Positions 4,738 to 39,839 of a DNA stretch of 64,000 nucleotides are shown piece by piece. The stretch comes from an uncultured Collinsella sp. (lineage in GTDB: Bacteria; Actinomycetota; Coriobacteriia; Coriobacteriales; Coriobacteriaceae). A program made the position numbers and the translations under genes. A model generated the notes under the pieces. The model was not told the origin of the DNA and made no database searches. It was given only the letters and a program-made list of their open reading frames with translations. The stretch lies in the NCBI GenBank assembly GCA_900543605.1, contig UQSK01000001.1, forward strand, positions 23,720 to 87,719, read 5' to 3'. The first letter of the stretch is position 1. Every line of letters starts with the position of its first letter.

Positions 4738-5120
4738 GCAACCACCTCCCCGTTTCGAACGACCACGAGGGCTGCGGCAACCGCGTCAGCTGCGGCGGAC
4801 ACGCGCTGTATGGCGGCGGACACGCGCTCTTCTGAGCAGCCCTTCTGGCCGTAGGTGTTCAAGGCGCGTGCGCATTGGTTGATGTTCGAGCCCGCGCGCT
4901 TGAGATTCGCGTAAGCCTTCTTCAGTTCGTCGGCGTCAACGTTGATCGTGCACACGCCCTTAGGGTCGTTAAGCGCGCGGAAGCGCATATAGGCGGACAT
5001 GCCGATGCCTGCCTTGCGAGCGCGGGATTTGATGCGCTGATACTCGCGATGTGTCACGCGGACGTCAATCCTGAGTACTCGTCCGCGCGTCCTGGCTTGC
5101 CGATTGTTTTCATTATGCAT
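4734..5120 (-). CDS. MobC-family relaxosome accessory protein
   Basis: The internal ATG (complement 5120-5118) gives MHNENNRQARTRGRVLRIDVRVTHREYQRIKSRARKAGIGMSAYMRFRAL, a ribbon-helix-helix-like MobC pattern. The gene is first in the mobC-T4CP-relaxase order. Confidence 0.7.
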   Translation of the reverse strand: MHNENNRQARTRGRVLRIDVRVTHREYQRIKSRARKAGIGMSAYMRFRALNDPKGVCTINVDADELKKAYANLKRAGSNINQCARALNTYGQKGCSEERVSAAIQRVSAAADAVAAALVVVRNGEVVA

Positions 5121-5280
5121 GGTCGTAGTCCTTGGTCGTTGTGGCAGAGCCTGTGGCAATTTCTGTGGCAACTCATCGGCTACCGTGAATTACCACAGGC
5201 TCCCTAGAACTACTTCCCGCTACCATTTTCGCAGGTAGATGCTACCTTGACTTTCCTCTGTTACCGTGGGATTCTACGTC

Positions 5281-5333
5281 CGAGGGCTCTCATAACCCGG
5301 AGGTCGTAGGTTCAAATCCTGCCCCCGCGACCA
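5281..5333 (+). other. 3' half of tRNA-fMet(CAT) without a 5' half: putative attR core of the integrated element
   Basis: CTCATAACCCGGAGGTCGTAGGTTCAAATCCTGCCCCCGCGACCA matches the anticodon loop, the GGG/CCC initiator stem, the T-arm and the acceptor-CCA of bacterial initiator tRNA (compare the E. coli fMet 3' half). There is no CGCGGGG 5' acceptor strand upstream, and a 2-nt disruption occurs in the anticodon stem-loop at about 5287. Confidence 0.7.
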
Positions 5334-5342
5334 AGAACTTGC

Positions 5343-5373
5343 AGCTCGTCGGCCTAGCCGGCGAGCTTTTTTG
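5343..5373 (+). terminator. rho-independent terminator (native tRNA terminator)
   Basis: Stem AGCTCGTCGGC / GCCGGCGAGCT followed by a T6 run. Confidence 0.7.
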
Positions 5374-5422
5374 TTATTTCGGGACCGTGTTTTCGGTTCA
5401 ATTCTCGGCCTCTCAATCAAAG

Positions 5423-5721
5423 ATCTCGATCTGTAACATCTAGACCCGATTTGGGCGGCTAGGTGTTACAGATCGAGATATACCGGTGGGTTGGGTCGTG
5501 TTTGTCTAAATCTGTAACACGAGGGACGGATTTTGCCGAGTTGTTGTTATAGATTGAGATTTTCTAGCAGGCGGGTTTGGTTTGTCTCGATCTGTAACAG
5601 ATAGGGGCCAAAAGTGGGCCTAGCTGTTACAGATCTAGATTGTTGAGGATGGGCCGAGAGGAATGTCTCGATCTGTAACAGTAAGACCCAGTTTTGCCGC
5701 GTAACTGTTACAGATTGAGAT
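5423..5721. repeat. tandem array of four ~81-nt hairpin units (eight 16-nt repeats in alternating orientation)
   Basis: GTCTCGATCTGTAACA occurs at 5423, 5504, 5584 and 5665. Its inverse TGTTACAGATCGAGAT occurs at 5464, 5545, 5625 and 5706. All loops are 25 nt and the inter-unit gaps are 23-24 nt. The loops are also related to each other (GACCCGATTTGGGC, GACGGATTTTGCC, GACCCAGTTTTGCC). Confidence 0.85.
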
Positions 5722-5861
5722 AAACCGACGGGCCGCCCCGCCCATCCCCATCCACCTGCCGCTACCTGCTGTCCGCCGATTTCCGTTGCGCTGCTGTATT
5801 CCCATGCCATATCCTCTAGATAACTACGCGGCATCATCGCCGCCGCGCCTACAAGAGAGGA

Positions 5862-7898: not shown

Positions 7899-7973
7899 TT
7901 GAACATCGCGGCCAGGCGGGACGGTAGCACGGATCCGTCTCGCCCGGCTGTGTCCCGTCGGGTGCCAACCGGT

Positions 7974-8014
7974 GCGGGGCCTGCAAGCGCAGCAGGTCCC
8001 GCCCTTTTTGTTTT
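7974..8014 (+). terminator. rho-independent terminator
   Basis: GCGGGGCCTGC-N7-GCAGGTCCCGC followed by CTTTTTGTTTT. Confidence 0.7.
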
Positions 8015-8337
8015 GCTCCGGTGGATGGCAATGCGCGGTAATCATGAGGAGTGAGGACGTCTACTGCCTTGCAGATCACTCAAAAATATTGGGGAGGGGT
8101 TAATAACTATATCCTCTATACCAAAGGACATAAAGAGATGCCAATTTTGTTGACAAGCGAATGACGATTAGCTGCGAGTCAGCTACCAGCGTAAATAATC
8201 GATAAAGAAATGTCGTAATTTGGTGCCAAATGCCCAGATAACGCCGCGTCTATTTTAATTAACTGCTTTGAGCAAACAGTAAAATGCTACTATCTAACTT
8301 GCACGTAAGAAAGCAGATTAACGGTTAAGGCTAAGAA

Positions 8338-8742
8338 GTGGCAGGTATGTCGGAAGCAACTAGGACTCGCACGCATGCGCCTGAGGTTAGGCAGCGCGCC
8401 GTCGAGATCCTCCAAGAGGGGGTCGGTCATCGCGCCCTCGCTGCGGAGCTTGGCATTCCCCAGGCCACGGCTCGTCAGTGGGCCCGCGCGTATGCCGTGG
8501 GCGGTGCCGACGCCGTCCTCAATGCCGGTTCGCATCATCACACCTATTCGTACGACGTAAAGCTCGCTGTGGTTAAGGACCGTCTGGAAAACGGCTTGAC
8601 GGTTCGCGAGGCCATGATCAAGCACAAGATTCCCAGCGAGTCTTCGGTCAAGGCTTGGTGCCGTCAGTACCGCGAGAGCGGTGAGTCCGCACTGGTCGAT
8701 AAGCCGCGCGGTCGCAAGCCGCGCGTTAAAAAGGCGGAATAG
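8338..8742 (+). CDS. stand-alone double helix-turn-helix protein resembling IS3/IS150 OrfA (no transposase partner)
   Basis: 134 aa. Two HTH-like segments are present (GHRALAAELGIPQATARQWARAY and LTVREAMIKHKIPSESSVKAWCRQY). The tail KPRGRKPR is typical of IS3-family OrfA proteins. No OrfB or inverted repeats are seen nearby. The start is GTG at 8338 or ATG at 8347. Confidence 0.6.
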   Translation: MAGMSEATRTRTHAPEVRQRAVEILQEGVGHRALAAELGIPQATARQWARAYAVGGADAVLNAGSHHHTYSYDVKLAVVKDRLENGLTVREAMIKHKIPSESSVKAWCRQYRESGESALVDKPRGRKPRVKKAE

Positions 8743-8754
8743 CAAACGGGATGG

Positions 8755-8780
8755 TGCGCCCACAGGGGCGCATTTTCTTG
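8755..8780 (+). terminator. weak intrinsic terminator after the HTH gene
   Basis: TGCGCCC-ACAG-GGGCGCA followed by TTTTCTTG. Confidence 0.45.
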
Positions 8781-8921
8781 CCGCCTCTCTGCTCCAAAGC
8801 GGACGTGCCCTTACTCCGTACGCCTAAAACTCCCCAGTTGACCGAAAACCCGCCGCCGCTACTCCTCGATTGAGCTATAACGTTAAACAATTGCAGCGTT
8901 TTTGCATGGGGGAGTGATGGT

Positions 8922-11804
8922 ATGACGCTACTGTATTTCCTTACCCTGTTTCCGCTGGTACCGGCGCTGGGCATGCTGCTCGCGCGCGGTGACCGCGCCC
9001 GCGATGCGGTGGGGCTCATAGGCTCCGGCATTATTATGGCGGTGACAGTTGTAGTCGCCGTCATGTTTTTTGGCACGGGTCCGCAGAGCTTTGAGGTTGC
9101 CTCCGGCACCTCGCATGTGCTCTCGATCATCAGCTCCGCCATCGATGTCATCCTGTGCGCCGTCATCCTGTACAACGCGTACAAATATAGGAACGCGCTC
9201 ACCATGGTGCTCGGCATGGTCCAGCTGGTGGGCTCGCTCGCCTTTGCAGCCATGACGCTGCCCGCGGCCGAAGCCGTCACGGCGACGCCGCTCTACCTGG
9301 ACTACATGAGCGTGATCATGGTCCTCGCCGTCGGCATTGTTGGCAGCCTCATCTGTGTGTATGCCCTGGGCTACATGAAGGACTTCCAAGCGCACGACGA
9401 GCACGAGGCCGCGCTGCGCGGGCAGACCGCGCCCGACCGTCGCCCGCAGTTCCTGGCGCTCATGTTCCTGTTCCTCTCGGCCATGTTCGTCATCGTGACG
9501 AGCGACAACCTTGAGTGGCTGTTCTGCGGCTGGGAAATCACCACCGTGTGCTCGTTCCTTATGATTGGCTATACGCGCACGCCCGAGGCCATCAAGAACG
9601 CCTTTACCCAGATTATCCTCAACATGCTGGGCGGCATCGCGTTTTTGGTGGGCCTTATGTTCTTGCACCTTAACGGCATGCCGCTGACCATCTCGGGCAT
9701 GATTGAGCTTTCCGGCGCCGGAACCGCGCAATCCGCGCTGCTGGTGATGCCGGTCGTTCTGCTGTCGCTCGCCGCGCTCACCAAGGCCGCACAGATGCCG
9801 TTCCATACCTGGCTGCTCGGTGCTATGGTTGCCCCCACGCCCACGAGCGCCCTGCTGCACTCGTCAACCATGGTCAAGGCCGGCGTGTTCCTGATGGTCA
9901 AGCTGAGCCCGCTCTATGCCATCTATCCCGTGACTGGCTTTATGGTCACGAGTGTGGGTGCCATCACGTTTTTGCTCGCCGCCCTCATGGCCATCTCGCA
10001 GAGCAACGCCAAACGCGTGCTCGCGTACTCCACCATTTCCAACTTGGGCCTCATCAGTGCCTGCTTGGGTGTCGGCGCGCCCGAGGCCGTGTGGGCCGCC
10101 ATCTTCCTGATCCTGTTCCACACGGTGGCCAAGTCGCTGCTGTTCCTGTGCGTGGGCACGGCCGAGCATCATATCGGCAGCCGCAATATCGAGGACATGG
10201 ACGGTATGTTCAGCCGCATGCCGCATCTGACGCGTCTGATGATGCTGGGCATCATGGGCATGTTCGTGGCGCCGTTTGGCATGCTCGTGTCCAAATGGGG
10301 CGCCCTGGTGGCGTTTGCCCAGACCGGCAACGTGCTCATGATCATGGTGCTGGCCTTTGGCTCGGCCGCGACGTTTTACTTCTGGGGCAAGTGGCTTGCC
10401 AAGCTTTCGGGCGTCGACCCCACGGCTCAAAACGTTGAGGTCAATGTCCATAAGACCGAATGGATGGCGCTCAACACCATCGCCGCGCTGCTGATTCTGT
10501 GCTGCGTGGCGTTTCCGGTTATCTCGAGCGGCCTGGTGTCGCCTTACTTGGCCATGGTGTTTGGCCGCGTGCCGTACGTTATTGGCAAGGACGCCATGTA
10601 TCTGATGGTGGTTATCGTGGCGTTTATCGCCGTGGTGCTGCTGACTTCATTCCGCGTGAGCAACAAACCACACGTAAACGTATATCTTTCGGGTGTGGGA
10701 ACCGACAATTACCGCCATTTCCGCGGCTCGATGGGACACGAGGTGAAGGCCGAAAAGCGCAATTGGTACTCGGAGGACGCCCTTGGCGAGAAGCGTATTA
10801 GCCCCGCGGGTAGCGTCGTGTGCTGCAGCATTATCTTGTTTGCGCTGCTGTGTTGCGCGTGGATTGGGCCCGAGAGACTTGCCATGAGCGCGCCCTCGGT
10901 GCTGCGCGGCAAGTATTTTGAAGGTTCGGGCGTCGTGGGCATCTTTATTGGTACCGTGGCGTTTGCCCTGATTGCGCCGCTTGTGGGCGGCCTGATCGAC
11001 GGCGTTGACCGTAAGCTTTCGGCTCGCATGCAGGGCCGCGTGGGCCCGCGCTTGCTGCAGCCCTTCTACGACGTTGCCAAGCTGCTGCGCAAGGCCCCTG
11101 CCAGCGTAAACACCATGGACGATACCTACATGGCGTGCGCGCTCATCTTTACCGTGGTGGGCGGCGGCATCTTTGTGTCGGGCTCCAACACGCTGCTGTG
11201 CGCCTTTATGGTGACGCTCGCCGCGATCTTTGTGGTGCTGGCGTCCGCCTCGACGCAAAGCCCGTTTGCCCAGGTTGGCGCCGATCGCGAGTTGCTGCAG
11301 GTCATGAGTTACGAGCCCGCCGTTCTGCTGATGAGCGTGGGCCTGTATCTTGCCACCGATAGCTTCGATTCCATTGCCGTGACGGGACAGTCGGCCCCCA
11401 TCATCGTGTACAGCGCGCCCATTTTCTTCGCGCTGCTCGCGGTGCTTACCATCAAGCTGCGCAAGTCGCCGTTTGACCTTTCGTACTCGCATCACGCGCA
11501 TCAGGAGATCGTCCAGGGCGTCGCCACCGAGATGAGCGGCGGCACGCTGGCAAAGATGACCCTTATGCACTGGTGCGAGACCGTGCTGTTTTTGATGTGG
11601 GTGGGCATGTTCTTTGTTTGGGACAACCCGGTGAGCTGGGTCGTAGCCCTGGTCGTGATGGCCGCGACGTATTTTGTCGAGGTGCTGATCGACAACACCT
11701 TCGCACGCAGCACCTGGCGCAGCTGCTTTAAGCTCGGATGGGGCGTGGCGCTGGTGTTTGGCCTGCTCAACCTTATGCCCATCCTCGTCGACGTGTTTAT
11801 TTAG
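8922..11804 (+). CDS. echA-echB fusion: fused Ech hydrogenase membrane subunits: NuoL/antiporter-like EchA domain (about aa 1-630) plus NuoH/HycD-like EchB domain (about aa 665-960)
   Basis: A single uninterrupted 960-aa ORF. The N-terminal two thirds is a polytopic proton-conducting transporter-like region (WLLGAMVAPTPTSALLHSSTMVKAGVFL). The C-terminal third carries the NuoH/HycD hallmark RMQGRVGPRLLQPFYDVAKLLRK. Confidence 0.8.
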   Translation: MTLLYFLTLFPLVPALGMLLARGDRARDAVGLIGSGIIMAVTVVVAVMFFGTGPQSFEVASGTSHVLSIISSAIDVILCAVILYNAYKYRNALTMVLGMVQLVGSLAFAAMTLPAAEAVTATPLYLDYMSVIMVLAVGIVGSLICVYALGYMKDFQAHDEHEAALRGQTAPDRRPQFLALMFLFLSAMFVIVTSDNLEWLFCGWEITTVCSFLMIGYTRTPEAIKNAFTQIILNMLGGIAFLVGLMFLHLNGMPLTISGMIELSGAGTAQSALLVMPVVLLSLAALTKAAQMPFHTWLLGAMVAPTPTSALLHSSTMVKAGVFLMVKLSPLYAIYPVTGFMVTSVGAITFLLAALMAISQSNAKRVLAYSTISNLGLISACLGVGAPEAVWAAIFLILFHTVAKSLLFLCVGTAEHHIGSRNIEDMDGMFSRMPHLTRLMMLGIMGMFVAPFGMLVSKWGALVAFAQTGNVLMIMVLAFGSAATFYFWGKWLAKLSGVDPTAQNVEVNVHKTEWMALNTIAALLILCCVAFPVISSGLVSPYLAMVFGRVPYVIGKDAMYLMVVIVAFIAVVLLTSFRVSNKPHVNVYLSGVGTDNYRHFRGSMGHEVKAEKRNWYSEDALGEKRISPAGSVVCCSIILFALLCCAWIGPERLAMSAPSVLRGKYFEGSGVVGIFIGTVAFALIAPLVGGLIDGVDRKLSARMQGRVGPRLLQPFYDVAKLLRKAPASVNTMDDTYMACALIFTVVGGGIFVSGSNTLLCAFMVTLAAIFVVLASASTQSPFAQVGADRELLQVMSYEPAVLLMSVGLYLATDSFDSIAVTGQSAPIIVYSAPIFFALLAVLTIKLRKSPFDLSYSHHAHQEIVQGVATEMSGGTLAKMTLMHWCETVLFLMWVGMFFVWDNPVSWVVALVVMAATYFVEVLIDNTFARSTWRSCFKLGWGVALVFGLLNLMPILVDVFI

Positions 11805-30822: not shown

Positions 30823-30952
30823 GCCTACGCGTTTATCACCATCACGTACCTGCGCCTTTGCCGTACGCAGATGAGCAGAGCGGCAAGTGATGCGCTGCGG
30901 GTATAATGGACAGCATTCAAACGGTGGGCACCGACGTGCCCGCAGGAGAGGA

Positions 30953-31348
30953 ATGATCATGGGTAAGACTTTCAGCTTTGTCTCCGGCGCACTTTTTGGT
31001 GCCGCTGCCGGCGCTATTGTCGGCGTTGCTCTGGCCCCGCGCTCGGGCGCCGAGACCCGCGCCATGGCTGCCGATATCGCCAACGACGCCTGGGACAATA
31101 TGCGCGACACCTACGAGCACAGCGCCGAGGAGGCCCGTGCTGCGGTGAATGACTTTGGCCCGATGGTCGACGCCAAGACCGATGACCTGCGCGCCAAGGT
31201 CGATCTGGCCCGCGAGCGCATGGACCAGCTGCGCGAGCAGCTCAACGATGCCATCTCGGGTGGCAACGTGACGCCCGCCGCCGACGTCGTGGTCGAGAAC
31301 GCCGTCGAGGCTGATACCGAGGCTGCGGAGCCCTCGACCGAGGCATAA
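30953..31348 (+). CDS. YtxH-domain protein
   Basis: GKTFSFVSGALFGAAAGAIVGVALAPRSGAETR is the YtxH N-terminal pattern, followed by a coiled coil. The start is ATG 30953 or 30959, after GGAGAGG. Confidence 0.7.
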   Translation: MIMGKTFSFVSGALFGAAAGAIVGVALAPRSGAETRAMAADIANDAWDNMRDTYEHSAEEARAAVNDFGPMVDAKTDDLRAKVDLARERMDQLREQLNDAISGGNVTPAADVVVENAVEADTEAAEPSTEA

Positions 31349-32103
31349 TGCGCGCCGGGGATTTTGTCGGCGCCAAGATCTATCGCAAGCCTACCGAGGA
31401 CAAGCGCATCAAAAAGGACGGCACGCCGCGCAGCCCTAAAAAGCTCGGAAAGATTCACTTTCCGGTCTTTACCCCGGGCGGTACGCGCGTGGTCGGCTTT
31501 ATGGTCCGCCAGTCCGATATCGCGGGCATGATCGAGCGCCCCGACCGATTCGTAGCGCTCGACGCCATTGGTGTCTACGAGGGCGCCATCGCGGTCGATG
31601 ACGTCAAGGGCACCTACGATGCCGCCGCCGCCAAGCGCCTCGACATCAACCTGGACGATTGCATCATCTGGGTCGGTATGGACGTGCGCACGGAATCGGG
31701 CGACGTCGTGGGCTATTGCTCGGACGTTGAGTTCAAGCCACGCTCGGGCATCGTGCAGGCATTCTATGTGACCGCCGGTGCTGCTTCGAGTGTTTTGGTT
31801 GGTGACACGCAGGTGCCGCCGACGATGCTGCGCGGCTACGAGAACGGCGCGATGATTGTCTCGGACGAGGTCAAGACGCTTGGGTATTCGGGCGGCGCGG
31901 CCGCTAAGGCTGCCGAGGCCAGTGTCGTGGTGGGCGATAAGGTCAAGAAGGGCGCCAAGGTGCTCGATGACAAGGGGTCGGTCGCCGTGGACAAGGGCAG
32001 CCGCGCACTGGGCAAGCAGCTCGGCAAGACGCGCGGTATGTTCAAGGCCTTTAAGGACGAATATCAAAAGGCGAGCGGGGGTTCGTCAAAAGCTAGCAAA
32101 TAG
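31348..32103 (+). CDS. PRC-barrel-like protein (two barrels) with a basic tail
   Basis: The gene overlaps the ytxH stop (TAATG). The segments KIHFPVFTPGGTRVVGFMV and VRTESGDVVGYCSDVEF resemble PRC-barrel strands. The family call is tentative. Confidence 0.5.
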   Translation: MRAGDFVGAKIYRKPTEDKRIKKDGTPRSPKKLGKIHFPVFTPGGTRVVGFMVRQSDIAGMIERPDRFVALDAIGVYEGAIAVDDVKGTYDAAAAKRLDINLDDCIIWVGMDVRTESGDVVGYCSDVEFKPRSGIVQAFYVTAGAASSVLVGDTQVPPTMLRGYENGAMIVSDEVKTLGYSGGAAAKAAEASVVVGDKVKKGAKVLDDKGSVAVDKGSRALGKQLGKTRGMFKAFKDEYQKASGGSSKASK

Positions 32104-32175: not shown

Positions 32176-33582
32176 ATGCGCCAAAACGGATCTAACTTAA
32201 ACGGGCGCTCGGGTACGCGTCCGACGGCGCGCCGCGATCTGGGGCAGCTGCCCAGCGGTCAGCGTCGACGTCGCCGTAAGCCCGGCGCGATGTACCTCAA
32301 CCATAGCCGTGGGTTTAGCGATCGCAGCGCGCGCATCGGCAACGGGCGCTCGCCGCGCCGACCGTCCCGCCTGCCCTATGCGCTCATCGCCGTGGGTTGC
32401 GCGCTCGTGCTGTTTATCGCTGCTGTCGTGGGCTACGTCAACCGCAGCGTGGACGTGGAACTCAACGGGCAAACGACCGCGGTGCGCGTGGGCTCTACGT
32501 TGCAGAATCTTATCGACGATCAGAGCCTGACCGAAACGTACGACGCCGGCGATCTGCTGGCCGTCGACGACAGCGTGCTCAAACGCCATGGAGGCGAAAA
32601 GCTGTCGGTGAAGGTCGACGGCAAGCGCGTGAAGCAAGGCAAATGGGATAGTCGCGAGCTTACGGGTGGTGAGAAGGTGACGGTCAAGGACGGCCGCAAC
32701 GTGTACGAAAAGCACGAGGTCCAGGCCACGACCATCGAGCCAAAGCTTAAGGTCGAGGGCACGGGTGCCATTGAGTATGTCAAAACCTGGGGCGTTCAGG
32801 GCCGCTCCGAGGTATGGGTCGGCGAGCAGTCGGGCAAGACCCAGGACCGCGGCGAGGTCGTGCCCGCCACCGACTGCGTAGTCGAGTGCGCAAGCGTAGC
32901 GCCCAAGGGCAACGAAAAGTACGTGGCCCTGACATTTGACGAGGGTCCGAGCGGCGCGACCAAGCAGATCTTGCAGGTGCTCAAGGAAAAGGGCGTCACG
33001 GCGACGTTCTTCCTTTCGGGCGATGCCGCGGAAGCCTCGCCCGCTACTGCCAAAGCGATTGCCGATGCCGGGTGCGAGGTCGGCTCCAACAGCTACAGCG
33101 ATGATTCGCTCAAGGGCGAGGATCGCGAGACGGTGCGCAAGCAGATCACGAAGGGCACCGAGGCGATTAAGTCGGCGACCGGCGTCGAGACGATGTTGCT
33201 GCGTGCCCCCTACGCCGCGTTTGACGAGCAAAACTGGATTGACTCGATGGACCTGGTGTCCGCCGTGGTTTCGTGGAATATCGATTCGGGCGACTGGCTG
33301 CTCAACGGCGCTGACGAGCAAGTATCGACCGTGCTCGACTCGATGACGCCGGGCAATATCGTGCTGCTTACCGATAGCGATGAGTGCGCCGAGCAGACGC
33401 TCGAGGCGCTGCCGCAGATTATCGATGGTCTTGTCGCCGACGGCTACAAGATCGTGACGCTCAGCGAGCTGGTCAAGACGGACACGGCATTGAGCAAAAA
33501 GCTCACCTCGCTCACTAAGGTTTCCATGCCCAAAAACGCCGTGTTCCCCCAACTCCCCGAGGACGACGACACCACAGAGTAG
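32176..33582 (+). CDS. membrane-anchored polysaccharide deacetylase (NodB homology domain)
   Basis: YVALTFDEGPSGAT (NodB motif 1) and SNSYSD are present. An N-terminal TM helix is followed by beta-rich repeats. The start is uncertain (32176 or ATG 32290). Confidence 0.8.
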   Translation: MRQNGSNLNGRSGTRPTARRDLGQLPSGQRRRRRKPGAMYLNHSRGFSDRSARIGNGRSPRRPSRLPYALIAVGCALVLFIAAVVGYVNRSVDVELNGQTTAVRVGSTLQNLIDDQSLTETYDAGDLLAVDDSVLKRHGGEKLSVKVDGKRVKQGKWDSRELTGGEKVTVKDGRNVYEKHEVQATTIEPKLKVEGTGAIEYVKTWGVQGRSEVWVGEQSGKTQDRGEVVPATDCVVECASVAPKGNEKYVALTFDEGPSGATKQILQVLKEKGVTATFFLSGDAAEASPATAKAIADAGCEVGSNSYSDDSLKGEDRETVRKQITKGTEAIKSATGVETMLLRAPYAAFDEQNWIDSMDLVSAVVSWNIDSGDWLLNGADEQVSTVLDSMTPGNIVLLTDSDECAEQTLEALPQIIDGLVADGYKIVTLSELVKTDTALSKKLTSLTKVSMPKNAVFPQLPEDDDTTE

Positions 33583-33631
33583 TCATTGGGGACGTGCTTA
33601 AACGATTGGTCGTTTAGGGCGGTCTTAATCG
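33580..33631 (+). repeat. REP-like unit plus a degenerate second unit (TCATTGGGGAC family)
   Basis: TAGTCATTGGGGACGTGCTTAAACGATTGGTCGTTTAGGGCGGTCTTAATCG. Confidence 0.7.
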
Positions 33632-33764
33632 CTTTGTTCCACCGTGCTCATCCGGCTCCATGTCACGGATACGTCAGCGTTTGGTATGCCCGCAGTGTGC
33701 AGCGCATAAATTCGGTGCCGCAGCGCGATGCTGATGCTATAGTTACTGCGGTTAATGAGGGTCA

Positions 33765-33915
33765 AGAGAAAGGTTACAGGTGAAATCCAAACCTCGACCA
33801 TACAGTCGCTGACCCCATGCAGGTGCTTTCTGCGCGTGCACGGGGTGTGAGTGCCGAGCGGCGTGCCGCCCGCGCATGCGTATACATATCTAAAAGTCCA
33901 CGGATTGCGTGCCGG
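33765..33915 (+). promoter_or_regulatory. candidate M-box (ykoK-type Mg2+ riboswitch) leader
   Basis: Three segments resemble conserved M-box blocks in the correct order over about 150 nt. GGTTACAGGTGAAATCC compares with GUUAGGUGAGGCUCC. CCATACAGTCGCTGACCCCATGC compares with GAUACGCUGCUGCCCAAAAAUG. GCGTATACATATCTAAAAGTCCACGGATT compares with GCCAUACAGUGCUAAAGCUCUACGAUU. The segment is directly upstream of Mg2+ transport genes. I could not convincingly draw the P1 pairing. Confidence 0.35.
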
Positions 33916-33956
33916 CATGGTCGCGCGGTCCGCAGGAATAATGATGGGGAGCACCA

Positions 33957-35801
33957 TTGAATTATCTGAGTGAGATGCTCAAATTGCCGGTCTTGGACGT
34001 CGACGGCGAAAAGCTCGGCGTGGTTAACGATTTTGGCATTGCAACCGGCGAAGTTTTTCCGCACGTGACGTCGCTCGCGTTCCGCGGACCCGGCAAGACG
34101 CCGTTTATGATCAGCTGGCGCAAATGGGTCGACCGTATCGACGAGACGGGTGTACACCTTAAGACGTCGGCCACCGAAATCCGTTTTTCGTACCTGCAGC
34201 CGACCGAACTCTTGCTTGCCCGCGACGTGCTCAACAAGCAGATTGTCGACACGCAGGGCATGAAGGTCGTGCGCGTAAACGACATCAAGTTTTCCATGTC
34301 GGGCGAAAATCAGCTGCGCCTGCTGGGTGCCGAAGTTGGCGCCCGCGGTCTGCTGCGCGCGATCAGCCCCACACTTGAGCATGTCGTCGAGGGCTTTATG
34401 AAGCATCTGGGCAAGCCGCTCAGCGAGGACATTATCGCCTGGTCTTACATGGACCTGCTCGATCGCTCGACTAAGAACATCCAGCTCTCGGTGTCGCACA
34501 AGACGCTTGGCGAGCTGCATCCTGCCGACATCGCCGACATCATCGAGCAGCTCGATCCGCGCCTACGCGCGCAGGTGTTTGCGCAGCTCGATACTGCCCA
34601 GGCCGCCGAGGCCATCTCGGAGTTCGATGACGACGAGCTTATGACCGAGATGCTCGAGGGCCTGTCCGACACGGACGCATCGTCGATGCTGGCCATGATG
34701 GACCCGGACGATGCAGCCGACCTGATCGACGAGCTTGATTACGAGAAGGCCGAGAAGCTCCTGCGCCTGATGGGCGTCAAGGAGGAGAAGGCGATTCGTA
34801 ACCTGCTGGGGTATGAGGACAACACCGCCGGCCGCATCATGACCTCGGAGTTTGTCTCCCTGCCCGCCACGGCGACGGTCGGTGACGCCATCGAGGCGAT
34901 TCGCAAGCTCGACGAGGACTTCGAGAGCGTCTACTACGTCTATACCGAGGACCCGAGCGGCATGCTGACGGGCGTGCTTTCGCTGCGCACGCTGATCGTA
35001 GCCGACCGCGACGCCACGCTGGGTCAGCTGGCCTATCGCGACCTGGTCTATGTGTCGCCCGACGAGGACCAGGAAGACGTGACGGACGAGATGACCAAGT
35101 ATGACCTGGTCGCCATCCCTGTCTGCGACGAGAACCGTCATATTCTGGGTATCGTAACCTTCGACGACGCCATGGACGTTATTGCCGAGGAGCATCAGGA
35201 GGACCTGCAGATCGCCGGTGTCGGCTCGGGCGATAGCGCGTCGGACGACTCGACGAACGTGCTCAGCTGGTTCGTGCATCGCCAGTACTGGGTTGTTGTA
35301 TGGGGCATCGCGTCGTGCATTATGGCGACCGTGCTGGGAACGGCGCTCGGCTCCGCGCATCTGGTGGTGTTCCCCATGTGCGCCATGCCGCTCGTACTGC
35401 TGGCTGCCTCGCGCATGGTGTCGTTCGTCAAGAACTACTTCCTCGAGTACGACGGTCACGACGACGAGCCCAAGCCGTATCTGGGGTTTTTCTTCCAGAG
35501 CACGGGCATGGGCCTGATTCTGTCACTCGTGACCTACCTGTGCGCCCAGCTGGTGCGCACCGCTGCATTCCCCGATGCGCCCATGTTTGAGGAACAGCTC
35601 TTTACCGGGTGCTTTAATATCGCTGCCATCATTTGCCTGGTTGGCAACATGAGCGCCGTGATTTACCTGATGGTACTGTTCTGGCGTGACGAGCATGACC
35701 TCAACACGTCGGGCACCGCCATGAACGTTATTGCCGTCATGATCTCGTGCATAGCGTACTGCGCCGCTGCGGTGCTTCTCACCATGTCGGTCATGGGTTA
35801 G
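33957..35801 (+). CDS. PRC-barrel + MgtE_N + CBS-pair protein with a non-MgtE C-terminal membrane domain
   Basis: 614 aa, starting at TTG 33957 or ATG 33975. The N-terminal PRC-like barrels include LPVLDVDGEKLGVVNDF and VVDTQGMKVVRVNDIKF. The MgtE_N region is LHPADIADIIEQLDPRLRAQVF...AAEAISEFDDDEL...PDDAADLIDEL. The CBS pair begins TAGRIMTSEFVSL. The last ~190 aa form about 5 TM helices that lack the MgtE TM signatures (no GTGGNxGxQ-type motif). Confidence 0.75.
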   Translation: MNYLSEMLKLPVLDVDGEKLGVVNDFGIATGEVFPHVTSLAFRGPGKTPFMISWRKWVDRIDETGVHLKTSATEIRFSYLQPTELLLARDVLNKQIVDTQGMKVVRVNDIKFSMSGENQLRLLGAEVGARGLLRAISPTLEHVVEGFMKHLGKPLSEDIIAWSYMDLLDRSTKNIQLSVSHKTLGELHPADIADIIEQLDPRLRAQVFAQLDTAQAAEAISEFDDDELMTEMLEGLSDTDASSMLAMMDPDDAADLIDELDYEKAEKLLRLMGVKEEKAIRNLLGYEDNTAGRIMTSEFVSLPATATVGDAIEAIRKLDEDFESVYYVYTEDPSGMLTGVLSLRTLIVADRDATLGQLAYRDLVYVSPDEDQEDVTDEMTKYDLVAIPVCDENRHILGIVTFDDAMDVIAEEHQEDLQIAGVGSGDSASDDSTNVLSWFVHRQYWVVVWGIASCIMATVLGTALGSAHLVVFPMCAMPLVLLAASRMVSFVKNYFLEYDGHDDEPKPYLGFFFQSTGMGLILSLVTYLCAQLVRTAAFPDAPMFEEQLFTGCFNIAAIICLVGNMSAVIYLMVLFWRDEHDLNTSGTAMNVIAVMISCIAYCAAAVLLTMSVMG

Positions 35802-35809
35802 GTGGTCGC

Positions 35810-37072
35810 GTGCAAAATACCAAGCAAAAGTCGGGCACCAAGCAAAAGTTGACCATCGCGGCCATCTTTGGCGCAATGGGTCCCGGTCTGTTGGCGGCGC
35901 TTTCGGGCAATGACGCCGGCGGCATTGCAACGTATTCAAGCGCAGGCGCCAGCTATGGCTACAAGATGCTCTGGATGCTTCCCGTCATGACTGTGCTGCT
36001 CATCGTGACGCAGGAGACCGCGGCGCGCTGCGGTTGCGTTACGGGCAAGGGCCTGGCATCGCTCATTCGCGAGCGCTTTGGCGTGCGCAAGAGTGTACTT
36101 GCTATGGCGGCGCTGTTGATCGCCAACACGGCTGTGACCATTTCGGAGTTTGCGGGCATCGCCAGCGGCCTTGCTCTTTTTGGCGTGCCGGCGAGCATCT
36201 CGGTGCCGTTGGTGGCGCTGCTGGTGTGGATGCTTACCATGTCGGGTAGTTTCCAGCGCATCGAGAAGATCCTGCTGCTGGTGAGCTGCGTGTTCGTGAC
36301 CTATATTGTCGCTGCGTTTATGGCTGGCCCCAACTGGGGTGAGGTCGCGGTCGACCTGGTCGTGCCCAACATTCAAAATGACCCCAGCTACGTGTCGCTC
36401 GTGGTCGCAACGATCGGTACCACCATCGCGCCGTGGATGATTTTCTTAGCGCAGAACAACGTGGTCGATAAGAACGCGGGCGAGGACGATATCGTGCTGC
36501 AGCGTATCGATACCGTGAGCGGCTCGCTTGCCGCCGATGTCATTGCCGGCTTTATTATCATCACGACCGGTACGGTGTTGTTCCCGGCGGGCATTCAGAT
36601 TAGCGATGCTGCCGATGCTGCCCGCGCGCTGGAGCCTATTGCGGGTCAGTGGTCCACGGTACTGTTTGCCTCGGGCCTGGTCGCGGCGAGCTTCTTGGCT
36701 GCCTGCGTGCTGCCGGGCGTTACGTCGAGCGCTATCTGCGAGGCATTTGGCTGGGAGCGCGGTGCCGACCGCAGCTGGGACGAGGCCCCGGTCTATCGCG
36801 GCATCATTACGGCCATCATCGGTATCTCTGCCGTGCTGGTGCTTATGCCCGGCGTCGATCTGTTCCAGATTATGATGACCTCGCAGGTCATCAATGGCGT
36901 GCTACTGCCCGTGGTTCTGGTGTTCCAGGTGGTTATCGCCGCCGACCGTCACATTATGGGCGCCAACCGCAACGGCCGCGTGTGGAACGTGCTCACTTGG
37001 GCGACTATCGGCGTGATTACGGTGCTCACGGTTGTCATGTTTGTCCTGCAGGCGATGGGCTACAGCGCTTAG
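35810..37072 (+). CDS. Nramp-related magnesium transporter (NRMT clade of SLC11)
   Basis: The GTG start at 35810 lies 9 nt after the upstream stop. The protein has the Nramp fold, but TM1 reads GNDAGGIATY instead of DPGN, and TM6 reads GTTIAPWMIF instead of GAxxMPH. These Asn-to-Gly and Met-to-Ala changes are, as I recall, the ones reported for NRMTs of Clostridium acetobutylicum and Eggerthella lenta. Confidence 0.75.
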   Translation: MQNTKQKSGTKQKLTIAAIFGAMGPGLLAALSGNDAGGIATYSSAGASYGYKMLWMLPVMTVLLIVTQETAARCGCVTGKGLASLIRERFGVRKSVLAMAALLIANTAVTISEFAGIASGLALFGVPASISVPLVALLVWMLTMSGSFQRIEKILLLVSCVFVTYIVAAFMAGPNWGEVAVDLVVPNIQNDPSYVSLVVATIGTTIAPWMIFLAQNNVVDKNAGEDDIVLQRIDTVSGSLAADVIAGFIIITTGTVLFPAGIQISDAADAARALEPIAGQWSTVLFASGLVAASFLAACVLPGVTSSAICEAFGWERGADRSWDEAPVYRGIITAIIGISAVLVLMPGVDLFQIMMTSQVINGVLLPVVLVFQVVIAADRHIMGANRNGRVWNVLTWATIGVITVLTVVMFVLQAMGYSA

Positions 37073-37091
37073 CGCCCACTTTTGCTTCCGA

Positions 37092-37126
37092 ACAGGCCGC
37101 AGCGATGGGCTGCGGCCTGTTTTTTG
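37092..37126 (+). terminator. rho-independent terminator
   Basis: ACAGGCCGCAGC-N5-GCTGCGGCCTGT followed by TTTTTT. Confidence 0.8.
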
Positions 37127-37622: not shown

Positions 37623-39839
37623 TTACTTGTCGGTGCCCAGCTTGTGTGGCTTGAGAGCGAGCGCATTGACGAGCGCGTCGGTGGCAGACTTGACGGCTGC
37701 CGGCTGCGGATCATTAACGTGATCCTCGGGATGCACGGGCAGGTCCTTCTTGACGGCATCGTGGATGAGCTTAAGGTACTCGGTCACACCCGTGTTCGAA
37801 AGGTGCGTGCCGTCGCCATCGAACAGATCGTTGCGGTTGGCACTGTATCCGTACCAGTCGATAACGCGCACGTTTTTGTAGCGCGTAGCGGCGTTGGCGA
37901 TGGCCTGGTTGGTAGAGCCAACCCACGGCTGCGGGCTGCGCGTGTTCACAAACACCACAATACGCTTATCTCCTGCATCGGCCATGATGGCGTCTATCTG
38001 GTCGTCGGTTACCAAGCCGTTGGTGCCCAGGGCAAAGACCACGATCTTGCCGGCAAGGTTCTGCTGGATATAGCCTTCAAATGTCGCACGGCCCGCATCA
38101 AACTGGCGGCCCTTTTCGGCATCGATATGGCTGTGCGGGAACACGCCGTCAAAGGTGTCCACGGCACGCAGCGACACGGAGTCGCCGATCATAAGCAGAT
38201 CGTAGGAGCCATCGGGGAAGCCGTCGTTGTCCTTGTCGGTGTCGTCGGCCGCCTGCTGGTCGGTGGGCGCGGTGTTCTTGGCTTCCTTGTTCAGAACTTC
38301 GGCGCCCTCACCGCTCAGTGCGGAGGTCTCCGGCACAAAGATCAGGCCGCCCAGCGCAACGACCAACACGACAGCGCAGGCTGCGCAGGCAGGGACGTGC
38401 GCGCGTGCCCAGTTGGCGGGCGTGGTGGCGCCATCGCGGAATTCGGCGACGGTGCGCCCAAAGGCGCCCTTCCTAAACGGAGTCTCGATAAAGCGATATG
38501 AGCATTCGGCCACGGCGACCACCAGCAGCACCTGCAAAATGTACTGCCACCAGGGTGTATCGTTGATGTTGGCGACCGGGTTCATGAGCAACAGCAGCGG
38601 ATAGTGCCACAGGTAGATGCTGTACGAGCGCTTGCCAACCCACACGAGCGGCTCGGCGGACAGCGCGCGGGCAACCATTCCCTGGGGCTGCACGCAGGCG
38701 GCAATGACCATGAGCGTGAGGATCGAGCACAGCAGCGTGCCGCCGCGATACTGGAACGCGGTGTAGCCGTTGGTGAGCGCGACCATGGCAGCAAGACCAA
38801 CCAGACCCACGACGCCCAGCACATCGATGGATGCGGGCGAGGACCAAAAGCGCACGAGGGCGCTCGGCTGTGCCGGGGCGGTCTCGGCTGCTTCGTCGGC
38901 CTTCTCGCCAGGCTTGCCCTCGGCGTTCTTGCCGTGCTTGGCGGCGCCAGCCAGGCGATTGAACCCCAAACGATGAGCGAGACGCACCGGCGCCAGGTCG
39001 CGATCGGGGATAAAGGCCATCCAGGCGCCCAGCAGCAGCGAGAACACGCGGGTGTCGGTGCCGTAGTACACGCGGCTGGGGTCGGCGGCGGGGTTGTAAA
39101 GCACCATCATGGCAAGGGCGGATACCGCGGCGAGGCCCAGAACCACGCGGCGCGTGTTGGGCTTGCTCACATGCATGGATACCATGGCAAACAGCAGTGG
39201 CGGCCAAATCAGGTAGAACTGTTCCTCGATGGCAAGCGACCAAAAGTGCGTGAGCGGCGAGGGGTCGCCCAGAGCATTGAAGTACGAGACGTTTTGGGCA
39301 ATCTGCCACCAGTTGTTGAAGAACAGCAGCGACGGCAGGATGTCGGGGCGCATCTTGGTGAGCATCACGTGGTTAAAGATAGTGCACAGCGCGCAGGTTA
39401 CAAACACTACCGTTACCACGGCGGGGACCAGGCGACGGATGCGGCGAATCCAGAAGCTCTTGAGGTCGATGCGTCCGGTCTTAGCGACTTCGTTGAGTAG
39501 CAGGCGCGTGATCAGATAGCCCGAAAGCACAAAGAAGATCGTGACGCCGAGCAGGCCGCCCTGAGCCCACGTGAGGTTAAGGTGATAGAGCACCACCGCG
39601 ACGACGGCAAGCGTACGCAGACCGTCGAGTGCAGGGATGTAGCGGGACTTGGGGCGAGCAGACGTTTGCTCCGCGGCGGGAGTGTTGGCGCGGCCCGCGT
39701 TGTTGGCAGAAGCGCGATGGGGGCTCGCGGTGCGTCGCGGTTCGTTGGCACGGCGTTCGCCCTTCACGCGTTCGTGCGGCGCCGGCTCGTTGCCCGTGCG
39801 GCGTCGACCGCGCGAGCCCGATTGCGAGAGTTGTTCCAT
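37623..39839 (-). CDS. acyltransferase-3 family membrane protein fused to an SGNH hydrolase domain (OatA-like O-acetyltransferase)
   Basis: IPALDGLRTLAVVAVVLYHL and FFVLSGYLIT are AT3 motifs, with about 10 TM helices. The C-terminal SGNH domain contains LLMIGDSVSL ... GTNG ... DGTHL. Confidence 0.85.
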   Translation of the reverse strand: MEQLSQSGSRGRRRTGNEPAPHERVKGERRANEPRRTASPHRASANNAGRANTPAAEQTSARPKSRYIPALDGLRTLAVVAVVLYHLNLTWAQGGLLGVTIFFVLSGYLITRLLLNEVAKTGRIDLKSFWIRRIRRLVPAVVTVVFVTCALCTIFNHVMLTKMRPDILPSLLFFNNWWQIAQNVSYFNALGDPSPLTHFWSLAIEEQFYLIWPPLLFAMVSMHVSKPNTRRVVLGLAAVSALAMMVLYNPAADPSRVYYGTDTRVFSLLLGAWMAFIPDRDLAPVRLAHRLGFNRLAGAAKHGKNAEGKPGEKADEAAETAPAQPSALVRFWSSPASIDVLGVVGLVGLAAMVALTNGYTAFQYRGGTLLCSILTLMVIAACVQPQGMVARALSAEPLVWVGKRSYSIYLWHYPLLLLMNPVANINDTPWWQYILQVLLVVAVAECSYRFIETPFRKGAFGRTVAEFRDGATTPANWARAHVPACAACAVVLVVALGGLIFVPETSALSGEGAEVLNKEAKNTAPTDQQAADDTDKDNDGFPDGSYDLLMIGDSVSLRAVDTFDGVFPHSHIDAEKGRQFDAGRATFEGYIQQNLAGKIVVFALGTNGLVTDDQIDAIMADAGDKRIVVFVNTRSPQPWVGSTNQAIANAATRYKNVRVIDWYGYSANRNDLFDGDGTHLSNTGVTEYLKLIHDAVKKDLPVHPEDHVNDPQPAAVKSATDALVNALALKPHKLGTDK

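Follow-up and report, generated by a model that had tools for sequence, protein, structure and literature searches.

A predicted MgtE-derived, membrane-anchored partner encoded directly upstream of an NRMT-type Mg2+ transporter in Collinsella

The window analysed here, a stretch of 64,000 nucleotides from the genome of an uncultured Collinsella sp., contains a two-gene Mg2+-homeostasis operon in which ORF A is followed by ORF B; all features described below lie on the forward (+) strand. ORF A (33957..35801) encodes 614 aa between a TTG start and a TAG stop, and ORF B (35810..37072) encodes 420 aa from a GTG start. The two genes are separated by a spacer of 8 nt, and the start of ORF B is preceded by AGGTGG. 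A Shine-Dalgarno-like GGGGAG (33946..33951), read from the sequence 5 nt before the TTG of ORF A, is conserved in Collinsella loci. No terminator-like site was found between ORF A and ORF B, and the operon ends in an intrinsic terminator (37090..37122) with a 14-bp stem (9 G-C pairs) that runs into a stretch of T. The same two gene calls are made on an independent contig. The features of both genes are confirmed at these coordinates and lie far beyond chance.

A conserved leader lies 5' of the operon. An extended -10-like promoter element, TGCTATAGT (33735..33743), matches once in the window and falls within a conserved block upstream of the Collinsella partner gene, as ORF A and its counterparts are called here; ATAGTTAC is also present upstream in Atopobium. 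A consensus scan found no two-hexamer promoter, so that the extended -10 element is a putative promoter, from which transcription would start a few nt downstream of TGCTATAGT. The leader core, GAGAAAGG..UGAAA..CGACCAUACAGUCGCUGACC (33762..33818), is described by covariance model R1, which scores 62.7 bits (E 6e-12) on the window. This core is nearly invariant in eight Collinsella sequences (dS of the adjacent genes about 0.3) and also occurs 5' of the partner gene in Atopobium, Lancefieldella and Coriobacteriia MAGs. Of the metagenome loci that extend far enough, 94/94 have a partner gene within 49-152 nt after the core. A hairpin, P3 (ACCCC...GGGGU; 33812..33846), belongs to the minimum free energy (MFE) fold of 8/10 folded variants, though the stem sequences differ, and to that of the window leader (z = -3.06). 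No Rfam family matched the leader when positions 33300-34200 were searched at E<=10, and the window holds no M-box (RF00380) at the gathering score; as a positive control, the M-box search returned 125 bits at another locus, L088. The leader core is thus put forward as a candidate cis-regulatory RNA, and a leader of this non-M-box type may add control of expression.

ORF B was assigned to the Mg2+-transporting NRMT (Nramp-related Mg2+ transporter) clade in an earlier note on this DNA, and the homology searches bear this out. The protein matches Pfam Nramp (PF01566) with an E-value of 4.7e-88 over profile positions 1-356 of 357, and phmmer aligns it to EleNRMT (PDB 7QIA) with an E-value of 4.5e-149 and 57.5% identity over 407 aa. 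Its motifs DAGG (aa 35-38) and TTIAPW (aa 204-209) carry the metal-site features of an NRMT: the TM1 Asp is kept and Asn is replaced by Gly (DxGG), TM6 has Thr for Ala and Ala for Met, and TM10 provides Gln. In a gapless alignment, D35, G38, T204, A207 and Q359 correspond to D55, G58, T224, A227 and Q379 of EleNRMT, so that five of five binding-site residues, whose roles were established for EleNRMT (PMC8806188), are kept. By these matches ORF B is a member of the Mg2+-transporting NRMT clade. Mg2+ transport by EleNRMT is uncoupled from H+ (PMC8806188), and ORF B, as a close homologue, is probably an H+-uncoupled uptake carrier for Mg2+ (and Mn2+). It has no cytosolic regulatory domain of its own.

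In ORF A, the architecture proposed in the earlier note, PRC-barrel modules joined to the cytosolic sensing domains of MgtE, was recovered by Pfam searches for the PRC, MgtE_N and CBS families (PF05239, PF03448 and PF00571), while PF01769, the fourth family proposed for that check, gave no match. The first PRC-barrel module (aa 2-61; 33960..34139) scores 32.6 bits against PF05239 (cut-off 21.2). The second of the two modules claimed (aa 87-128; 34215..34340) is weak: a scan of aa 1-175 lists it as a second stretch (E 0.034 on this fragment), and its 14.6 bits are sub-threshold. Conservation across the family is strong at aa 87-128 (DKQIVD..VVRVND), and the PRC domains are poorly modelled (pLDDT below 50). 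An MgtE_N domain (aa 187-289; 34515..34823; PF03448, E 2.5e-24) is followed by a CBS pair and the start of the plug helix (aa 293-416; 34833..35204; PF00571 in two stretches, E 7.9e-18), and the protein aligns to the MgtE cytosolic structures 2OUX and 2YVX with E-values of about 1e-39. Alignment maps E218, D251 and D255 in MgtE_N to E59, D91 and D95 of Thermus MgtE (TtMgtE), and D383, D404, D407, E412, E415 and D416 to D226, D247, D250, E255, E258 and D259. In TtMgtE, residues E59, D91, D95, D226, D247, D250, E258 and D259 define the sites Mg2-Mg7 that gate the channel (PMC5882242), and the acidic ligands of these sites are all retained in ORF A. Judged by its domains, ORF A is a paralogue of MgtE with an N-terminal PRC-barrel extension of one or possibly two modules. 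It retains in full the Mg2+-sensing apparatus of MgtE, comprising N domain, CBS pair and plug helix.

The C-terminal part of ORF A (aa 437-614; 35265..35798) forms a five-helix TM domain, for which evidence comes from hhalign, an AF2 model, Foldseek, motif columns and dN/dS; a hydropathy scan places about five TM segments between aa 443 and 612. In the earlier note these helices could not be aligned to the MgtE pore, and the sensor was thought to be detached from its own pore. The comparisons made here identify them instead as a strongly diverged MgtE TM domain. An hhalign comparison of the ORF A TM domain with the TM domains of its relatives, most of which match PF01769, gave a probability of 95.8% (E 6.6e-9, 161 columns), and PF01769 is still matched by 16/28 proteins in an alignment of ORF A and relatives of about 600 aa. 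The four best Foldseek PDB matches of the TM model (pLDDT 78.9) are the MgtE TM structures 4u9l_A, 4u9l_B, 4u9n_A and 5x9h_B, with a probability of 1.0, TM-scores of 0.51-0.59 and modest E-values (3e-3 to 7e-2). A bona fide, PF01769-scoring MgtE pore was also considered and rejected: neither the whole of ORF A nor its C-terminal 181 aa matched PF01769, the latter giving no Pfam match even at E<=10, TIGR00400 reached 219 bits, under its cut-off of 232.75, and the pore residues are lost.

At the level of single residues, the kink proline P321 of TtMgtE is kept as P478, and the TM2 motif GGNxGNQ is replaced by LAASRMVSF, with G325, G328, N329 and N332 mapping to L482, S485, R486 and S489. The pore Asp D432 in TM5 (site Mg1), mapped through D587 of the relative P0295, has become V594; mutation of this site abolishes the conductance of TtMgtE (PMC5882242). 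The TM part is under purifying selection about as strong as that on the PRC part (dN/dS 0.030 vs 0.036 in eight Collinsella genes with dS about 0.3). Within the Collinsella/Enorma clade the mean pairwise identity of the TM part is 47-57%, against 80-88% for the cytosolic domains, and the cytoplasmic loop motifs FLEYD..KPY and WRDEHDLNTSG are invariant. By alignment and model, the five helices are a strongly diverged, degenerate MgtE pore domain from which the MgtE-channel residues are gone, that is, a predicted pseudo-channel, and ORF A is probably non-conducting.

As a separate point, the loss of D432 and of the GN motif argues against conduction of the MgtE type and is no proof against transport.

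The tight pairing of the two genes, for which the earlier note had suggested a test of neighbourhood conservation, extends well beyond this genome. A partner gene lies directly upstream of the NRMT gene in 78/78 Coriobacteriia NRMT loci with enough upstream DNA, and such pairs are found as well in Armatimonadota, Chloroflexota, Dehalococcoidia and other contigs. The partner takes two forms. It is TM-anchored in Collinsella, Atopobium and Lancefieldella, the 5-TM layout being retained from Collinsella through these genera to termite-gut MAGs, and it is soluble, without a TM domain, in all sampled Eggerthellaceae, a sister family to which close relatives of the organism that yielded EleNRMT belong. 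Most representatives (85/150) are soluble versions, and soluble partners of about 414-424 aa stand beside NRMT-type genes in Chloroflexota and other contigs. Further, the PRC-MgtE_N-CBS module is fused to MgtA-type Mg2+ ATPases in 7-8 protein clusters (TIGR01524, 1119.8 bits, cut-off 610.75), and at L088 one such fusion has an M-box before it and a partner-NRMT pair after it. PRC-MgtE_N-CBS can be regarded as a portable regulatory module. Among 27 PRC-bearing relatives of about 600 aa, only P0295 keeps both the pore motif and the pore Asp, and its neighbourhood contains no Nramp gene. There is likewise no adjoining Nramp gene at P0305, P0278 and the 781-aa P0449, which have degenerate pores; a degenerate TM domain thus does not always go with an NRMT.

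What the sequences show is homology at domain level, pore residues lost and sensor residues retained, purifying selection and a strict linkage of the genes. The favoured interpretation, to which we would give a probability of roughly 0.55, is that ORF A is a pseudo-channel which senses Mg2+ and acts as the regulator of an uncoupled Mg2+ transporter. The two-component, Mg2+-gated NRMT complex suggested in the earlier note is a hypothesis along these lines, and both the contact of ORF A with the NRMT and the direction of regulation are putative. ORF A would bind Mg2+ at millimolar cytosolic levels, its Mg2+-bound form would undergo an MgtE-type closure of the N and CBS domains, and the closed form would restrain the neighbouring NRMT. 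Such restraint would supply the feedback needed by an uncoupled, potential-driven Mg2+ carrier. Since the Eggerthellaceae partner has no TM domain, any regulatory contact would be made mainly through the cytosolic PRC/N/CBS part, and the TM domain would only tether ORF A to the membrane. Most likely, this domain has been kept as an anchor in the membrane or as a scaffold for dimerisation or docking; its constraint (dN/dS 0.03) seems to exceed the needs of a passive anchor, and it may therefore have a specific role.

Among the alternatives, ORF A could sense Mg2+, or adenine nucleotides via its CBS pair, and act elsewhere than in NRMT gating, as a metallochaperone, as a regulator of NRMT stability or insertion, or in a signal to another target. 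'Metal chaperone activity' was named as an alternative by Shin et al. (2014; PMC4072509) in their remarks on the partner, and the A. capsulatum pair described there seems to handle Mn2+. Nucleotide binding is common in CBS pairs, TtMgtE binds ATP (PDB 5X9H is among the structural matches), and some family members have no Nramp neighbour. However, a direct effect on a transporter is indicated by the strict, translationally coupled arrangement with the NRMT and by the fusion in cis to MgtA, and the acids of the MgtE gating sites are all retained, which makes this alternative rather unlikely.

A lower probability attaches to ORF A being a very divergent but working MgtE-type Mg2+ channel, which would offer a second, independent uptake route and be co-transcribed with ORF B only through a common role in Mg2+ supply. 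The substitution of Val for the pore Asp, at a site needed for conductance in TtMgtE, together with the missing GGNxGNQ motif and the lack of any PF01769 score on ORF A, weighs against a channel that is otherwise suggested by the full MgtE architecture with five TM helices of the MgtE fold, by the kept kink proline, by strong purifying selection on the TM part and by the annotation of homologues as 'magnesium transporter' in their sources. In addition, the Eggerthellaceae partner has no TM domain and still adjoins the NRMT gene, and channel function therefore cannot be the conserved function.

It is just as improbable that ORF A is an activator or an obligatory in-vivo subunit, which, instead of serving as a negative-feedback brake, might open the carrier or stabilise it when Mg2+ is low. 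The linkage evidence serves this alternative as well as it serves regulation by a Mg2+-sensing pseudo-channel, and EleNRMT, chosen as the best behaved in a screen of 82 NRMT homologues, nevertheless had to be stabilised by mutations (PMC8806188), which could reflect a missing partner. Yet Mg2+ is transported without a partner by EleNRMT (PMC8806188) and, as reported by Shin et al. (2014; PMC4072509), by C. acetobutylicum NrmT, and the homologous MgtE domains close their channel on Mg2+ binding (PMC5882242). Finally, a decaying, functionless TM tail, heading for the loss that Eggerthellaceae have already undergone, would agree with the lower conservation of the TM part in the Collinsella/Enorma clade and with the prevalence of soluble versions, but is hardly credible for a domain whose dN/dS is in the range of the PRC part, whose 5-TM layout is kept across genera and whose cytoplasmic loop motifs are invariant.

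Compared with MgtE of T. thermophilus (2YVX/2ZY9/4U9L; PF03448, PF00571 and PF01769), ORF A has in common the N domain, CBS pair, plug helix and five-TM fold. It differs in an added N-terminal PRC-barrel region of about 170 aa and in lacking a PF01769 score, the GGNxGNQ motif and the pore Asp D432, with TIGR00400 below its cut-off. P0295 (RMG04398.1, Nitrospirota) has the same PRC-PRC-MgtE_N-CBS-5TM layout at 30% identity; unlike ORF A, it keeps GNAGLQ and the pore Asp, matches TtMgtE over the whole length (E 4e-76) and has no Nramp neighbour. P0295 looks like the working-channel ancestor type. The leader likewise recalls control by the M-box (ykoK) riboswitch, in that a Mg2+ transporter operon stands behind a leader that is conserved and looks structured, whereas its conserved core differs in sequence from the M-box, which is found at the L088 cluster of MgtA fusion, partner and NRMT.

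The closest characterised transporter is EleNRMT of Eggerthella lenta (PDB 7QIA; Ramanadane et al., 2022, eLife, PMC8806188), which has its binding residues in common with ORF B at 57.5% identity. EleNRMT was characterised alone, whereas ORF B is encoded with a partner, and the text of PMC8806188 makes no mention of an operon, CBS domains, an accessory protein or genomic context. The E. sinensis NRMT, 96% identical to EleNRMT, is encoded behind a gene for a soluble PRC-MgtE_N-CBS partner, as in other Eggerthellaceae.

The earlier note knew of no accessory subunit for NRMTs, but an accessory gene had been reported by Shin et al. [quoted passage not shown] As in the window, this gene lies directly upstream of that for the Nramp-related Mg2+ transporter. 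Shin and colleagues speculated on cytoplasmic feedback regulation by the MgtE-like fragment and reported that the partner is dispensable for NrmT transport, which agrees better with a modulator than with a core subunit. Co-expression of the A. capsulatum partner with its Nramp-related transporter left the rescue of a Mg2+-transport-deficient strain unchanged, in an assay that scored only gain of rescue and with a transporter that behaved as a Mn2+ transporter. The published partner is a small cytoplasmic-domain protein, often behind an M-box, whereas ORF A has 614 aa, PRC modules and five TM helices and stands behind no M-box. PRC-barrel modules and a membrane domain go unmentioned where PMC4072509 describes the partner; the soluble relatives suggest that PRC modules may be present in those fragments too. 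Thus, the accessory gene itself was already known, and what is new here is its membrane-anchored form, together with the strict linkage in Coriobacteriia, the MgtA fusions and the leader element.

Among bacterial Mg2+ importers, NRMTs are the fourth class. The clade was named NrmT by Shin et al. (PLoS Genet, 2014; PMC4072509), who reported an ancillary gene, encoding an MgtE-like cytoplasmic domain, beside most NrmT genes. They describe it as not required for transport, report that rescue at low Mg2+, the only property scored, was not further improved when the A. capsulatum pair was co-expressed, and speculate on feedback regulation of transport from the cytoplasm or on chaperone activity. An earlier note on this DNA had taken an accessory gene for NRMTs to be possibly undescribed; given the ancillary gene and the feedback idea in that paper, its central idea is therefore a rediscovery. 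The paper on EleNRMT, the Eggerthella lenta NRMT of PDB entry 7QIA, does not mention the neighbouring partner gene (Ramanadane et al., 2022; PMC8806188), and full-text literature searches turned up neither a paper that connects PRC-barrels to MgtE nor one that takes the ancillary gene further. The gene pair has thus been known since 2014 and the ancillary gene is an obvious candidate regulator of NRMT. The TM-anchored pseudo-channel with PRC modules and without an M-box is a new form of the pair; no description of the 614-aa form, which combines PRC modules with an apparently dead pore domain, was found in the literature searched.

The partner protein, ORF A (33957-35801, plus strand, 614 aa, TTG start), and the Nramp-type NRMT, ORF B (35810-37072, plus strand, 420 aa, with the GTG at 35810 as best start), lie in a region of 58-65% G+C. 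Both reading frames are as first described, and an independent metagenome contig carries the identical two gene calls in a matching neighbourhood. The stop of ORF A is separated by 8 nt from the start of ORF B, which is preceded by a ribosome-binding site (AGGTGG). No terminator-like hairpin was found at this junction, and a 14-bp hairpin with a T-run follows ORF B (37090-37122); therefore, the two genes constitute a bicistronic operon. The nearest homologues are from Collinsella, with ORF B 99% identical to a Collinsella sp. Nramp and ORF A matched at 98% identity by a cluster of 20,892 sequences. On the same strand, the operon is preceded by a YtxH-like ORF (30887-31348), a 251-aa ORF with a sub-threshold PRC-barrel match (31348-32103, E 0.012) and a polysaccharide deacetylase (32176-33582), an order repeated in the syntenic contig L001. 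A 738-aa acyltransferase-3 family ORF (37623-39839, minus strand; PF01757 in L001) converges on the operon terminator and is ordinary context, unrelated to the operon finding.

ORF B gives an end-to-end Pfam Nramp match (E 4.7e-88) and contains both the DAGG and the TTIAPW motifs from which it had been placed in the NRMT clade. That placement is borne out by comparison with solved structures, among which EleNRMT is the best match (E 4.5e-149, with Mn2+ Nramps at 1e-29 or worse; 57.5% identity over 407 ungapped residues). In particular, D35, G38, T204, A207 and Q359 of ORF B correspond to D55, G58, T224, A227 and Q379 of EleNRMT, the five residues tied to its enlarged Mg2+ site (Ramanadane et al., 2022; PMC8806188). 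EleNRMT transports Mg2+ and Mn2+ without H+ coupling (Ramanadane et al., 2022; PMC8806188), so that the membrane potential alone would drive Mg2+ inward without limit. By homology, the same H+-uncoupled Mg2+/Mn2+ transport would be expected of ORF B.

The cytosolic part of ORF A begins with a PRC-barrel that is significant in Pfam (aa 2-61). Two such modules had been proposed; the first stands, and the second corresponds only to a sub-threshold PRC-like stretch (aa 87-128). MgtE_N (aa 187-289) and the CBS pair are confirmed by Pfam, the latter as two stretches, and ORF A aligns at E about 1e-39 with two structures of the MgtE cytosolic domain, 2OUX and 2YVX. The cytosolic sites Mg2-Mg7 of TtMgtE, the T. 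thermophilus MgtE, are defined by E258, D259, D91/D247, D226/D250, D95 and E59 (Maruyama et al., 2018; PMC5882242). Mapped onto TtMgtE, ORF A keeps all of these acids, as E415, D416, D251/D404, D383/D407, D255 and E218, which makes its Mg2+-sensing apparatus look intact at the level of sequence.

The membrane part of ORF A, comprising five hydrophobic helices within the last 180 residues, was more difficult to assign. It has no Pfam match, comparing its C-terminal 181 aa directly with Pfam (PF01769 included), NCBIfam and PDB sequences did not connect it to the MgtE TM domain, and the whole protein scores just below the TIGR00400 mgtE cut-off, in line with what the earlier note had seen. A phmmer alignment of ORF A with 2YVX extends weakly into the TM part, and homology to MgtE could be established only through intermediate sequences, the comparison of profiles and a search by fold. 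Screening 1.8 billion representative proteins yielded about 30 relatives that share the layout of ORF A and are about 600 aa long. PF01769 was matched by 16 of the 28 proteins in an alignment of ORF A with 27 relatives (best E 1.3e-28), and by none of the eight closest relatives tested (35-62% identical to ORF A). C-terminal profiles of the PF01769-negative and the remaining, mostly PF01769-positive, proteins matched each other with a probability of 95.8% (E 6.6e-9), colinear over 161 columns. The AF2 model of full-length ORF A (mean pLDDT 62.7) is poor in the PRC region and so was used for the whole-chain MgtE match only, in which 433-448 columns align with full-length TtMgtE. The TM domain, modelled on its own (pLDDT 78.9, pTM 0.75), had MgtE TM-domain crystal structures as its four best PDB matches (4U9L, 4U9N, then 5X9H; probability 1.0, TM-score 0.51-0.59), and all other matches had E > 1. 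The five helices are a diverged MgtE pore domain, and the proposal that the sensor had become detached from its own pore has to be abandoned.

The residues of this domain suggest a pore that no longer conducts. The kink proline of TtMgtE, P321, is kept as P478 and is the sole TM residue invariant across the family. The GGNxGNQ motif of MgtE reads LAASRMVSF in ORF A, and the pore aspartate D432 (site Mg1) is replaced by V594, as aligned via the canonical relative P0295. Mutation at Mg1 abolishes Mg2+ conductance of TtMgtE (Maruyama et al., 2018; PMC5882242), and to judge from these substitutions the channel chemistry of ORF A is lost. Only P0295 keeps both the motif and the aspartate among 27 PRC-bearing relatives of about 600 aa. 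A decaying remnant is rejected by the purifying selection acting on the domain: among eight Collinsella genes (dS about 0.3), dN/dS is 0.030 in the TM part, compared with 0.036 in the PRC part and 0.015 for N plus CBS. The cytoplasmic loops FLEYD..KPY and WRDEHDLNTSG of the TM part are nearly invariant, and in the wider Collinsella/Enorma clade mean pairwise identity is 47-57% in the TM part versus 80-88% in the cytosolic part. A further set of PRC-MgtE_N-CBS proteins (P0449, of 781 aa, at L096/L097 5001-7346; P0261, P0272, P0306, P0447 and P0448) is longer at the C-terminus, with a tail of about 320-360 aa that contains 5-8 hydrophobic segments, matches nothing in Pfam and may be another, unrecognised membrane domain; no Nramp neighbour was present at the single locus examined (L096/L097).

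To assess conservation of the pair, the EleNRMT sequence was scanned against GTDB species, each represented by a single genome; this gave 80 loci, all in Coriobacteriia. The partner lies directly upstream on the same strand in 78 of these and the remaining two lack upstream DNA, so that linkage is strict (78/78) wherever it can be read. In Eggerthellaceae (including Eggerthella sinensis, Gordonibacter, Slackia and Adlercreutzia) the partner ends soon after the CBS pair and is soluble; the E. sinensis NRMT is 96% identical to EleNRMT. A TM-anchored partner with a degenerate TM domain is found in Collinsella, Atopobium, Lancefieldella and several Coriobacteriales MAGs. Beyond Coriobacteriia, NRMT-type genes follow a TM-bearing partner in an Armatimonadota genome, a Dehalococcoidia-like contig and others, and a soluble one in Chloroflexota and other contigs. 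P0295, from Nitrospirota, is the sole relative with an intact pore and has no Nramp neighbour. A strict rule equating a degenerate pore with an Nramp neighbour is rejected, since P0305 and P0278 are degenerate without a downstream Nramp gene (the upstream side of P0278 is off its contig); the correlation, from a small sample, is therefore suggestive and not strict. A 967-aa protein resembling a natural ORF A-NRMT fusion (P0013) is a single-member sequence with TM4-5 deleted that reads through an out-of-frame upstream extension of ORF B. Three other single-member chimeras join an ORF A part of 97-99% identity to an RND pump, a MATE pump or SufBD (P0026, P0028, P0243). All four look like assembly artefacts or deletions, and the Rosetta-stone argument from an ORF A-NRMT fusion is accordingly dropped. 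An Nramp-family gene adjoining the 602-aa partner P0285 (L085 6833-8071; also L086 3179-4417) has GVGASG in TM1, without the otherwise universal metal-binding Asp, and TTLAPW in TM6.

The module also occurs on a third type of transporter. P0258 (1314 aa) consists of a PRC-MgtE_N-CBS module fused to a P-type ATPase that scores 1119.8 bits with the NCBIfam equivalog for Mg2+-translocating MgtA, above the cut-off of 610.75; the fused module shares 48% identity with ORF A over residues 1-422 of the latter and 60% with the partner encoded beside it. This architecture of about 1315 aa is full-length in 7-8 distinct clusters at 57-60% identity (P0258 and P0421-P0426; NCBI, JGI, ENA and Logan data). 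At L088/L089 the order is M-box riboswitch (in L088 at 1423-1666, 125 bits), MgtA fusion (1940-5884), a 621-aa ORF-A-like partner (6018-7883) and NRMT (7885-8382); at L094/L095 the fusion (5001-8948) comes after ZIP and MgtC genes. The module has thus been joined to three Mg2+ uptake systems unrelated to one another: its own MgtE pore, MgtA by fusion and NRMT by pairing. A transferable Mg2+-dependent regulator would fit these sequence patterns better than the chaperone also speculated on in 2014, or than an independent channel.

A spacer of 374 nt precedes ORF A and contains an extended -10-like element (TGCTATAGT, 33735-33743) and a leader element (33735-33956) with a core (33762-33818) and a hairpin (33812-33846). 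The core is almost invariant among Collinsella species, although dS of the adjacent genes is about 0.3, and in Atopobium and Lancefieldella, too, it lies upstream of the partner gene. A covariance model found it in three Coriobacteriia MAG loci and did not find it in Eggerthellaceae. Other copies are at L066 3747-3796, L076 3900-3949, L062 4005-4055, L065 3666-3717 and L100-L199. A metagenome scan with a degenerate core pattern gave 100 loci, and the partner gene starts 49-152 nt past the core at 94/94 of those with enough downstream DNA. A known riboswitch is rejected, as neither an M-box nor any other family of Rfam 15 matched upstream of ORF A at gathering score or E<=10. The leader makes a good candidate cis-regulatory RNA for the operon, and as such may be a new one standing in for the M-box; it could alternatively be a protein-binding site. 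The hairpin 3' of the core was predicted in 8/10 folded variants with quite different stem sequences. For the 5' domain, apparent compensations in the L062 and L065 leaders were seen by hand, only one compensatory pair was obtained, with pair types not in excess of shuffles, and a second proposed helix (CGAC/GUCG) is missing from L065 and shows no variation where it occurs; therefore, the structure of this domain is not established. At the position of the Coriobacteriales leader, Eggerthella, Gordonibacter and Slackia have a tRNA gene within about 100-200 nt upstream of the soluble partner (L002 4325-4398, L003 4106-4179, L036 4262-4335).

Overall, ORF A is proposed to be a Mg2+-sensing pseudo-channel that regulates NRMT, a reading to which we give a probability of about 0.55, with the contact and the direction of regulation as its proposed elements. 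Much greater confidence attaches to a joint role of ORF A and ORF B in Mg2+ homeostasis. ORF A would dimerise like MgtE; at millimolar cytosolic Mg2+ its N and CBS domains would close, and the closed form would restrain the NRMT, which, as an uncoupled and electrogenic carrier, would need such a brake. Since the partner lacks a TM domain in Eggerthellaceae, functional contact is expected in the cytosolic part, where the PRC modules are candidates because they set this family apart from ordinary MgtE; the TM domain may serve as a tether or second docking surface. Clearly more tentative is the joint reading, in which PRC-MgtE_N-CBS would be a portable Mg2+-sensing gate acting on MgtE, on MgtA in cis and on NRMT in trans, the dead pore domain would tether or dock the Collinsella pseudo-channel to NRMT as the off-switch of this otherwise uncoupled carrier, and a new leader RNA class would replace the M-box in Coriobacteriales.

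The long-standing question of NRMT regulation becomes directly testable at this locus, and the analysis points to specific residues for mutation. Collinsella and Eggerthella are abundant gut bacteria, so their Mg2+ handling is of some physiological interest. The series of loci, from an intact PRC-MgtE channel through the NRMT-side pseudo-channel and the soluble Eggerthellaceae partner to the in-cis MgtA fusion, is an unexpected evolutionary series from channel to sensor and offers a testable model of a channel turned into a dedicated sensor subunit for a different transporter. Compared with the MgtE channel, ORF A keeps the sensor acids and P321 but lacks GGNxGNQ and D432, and the PRC modules distinguish its family from ordinary MgtE. 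P0295 has the same layout with an intact pore and no Nramp neighbour, whereas the pore of ORF A is degenerate and lies beside an NRMT. With respect to the EleNRMT system, ORF B keeps the binding-site residues, and the Eggerthellaceae partner is soluble whereas ORF A is TM-anchored.
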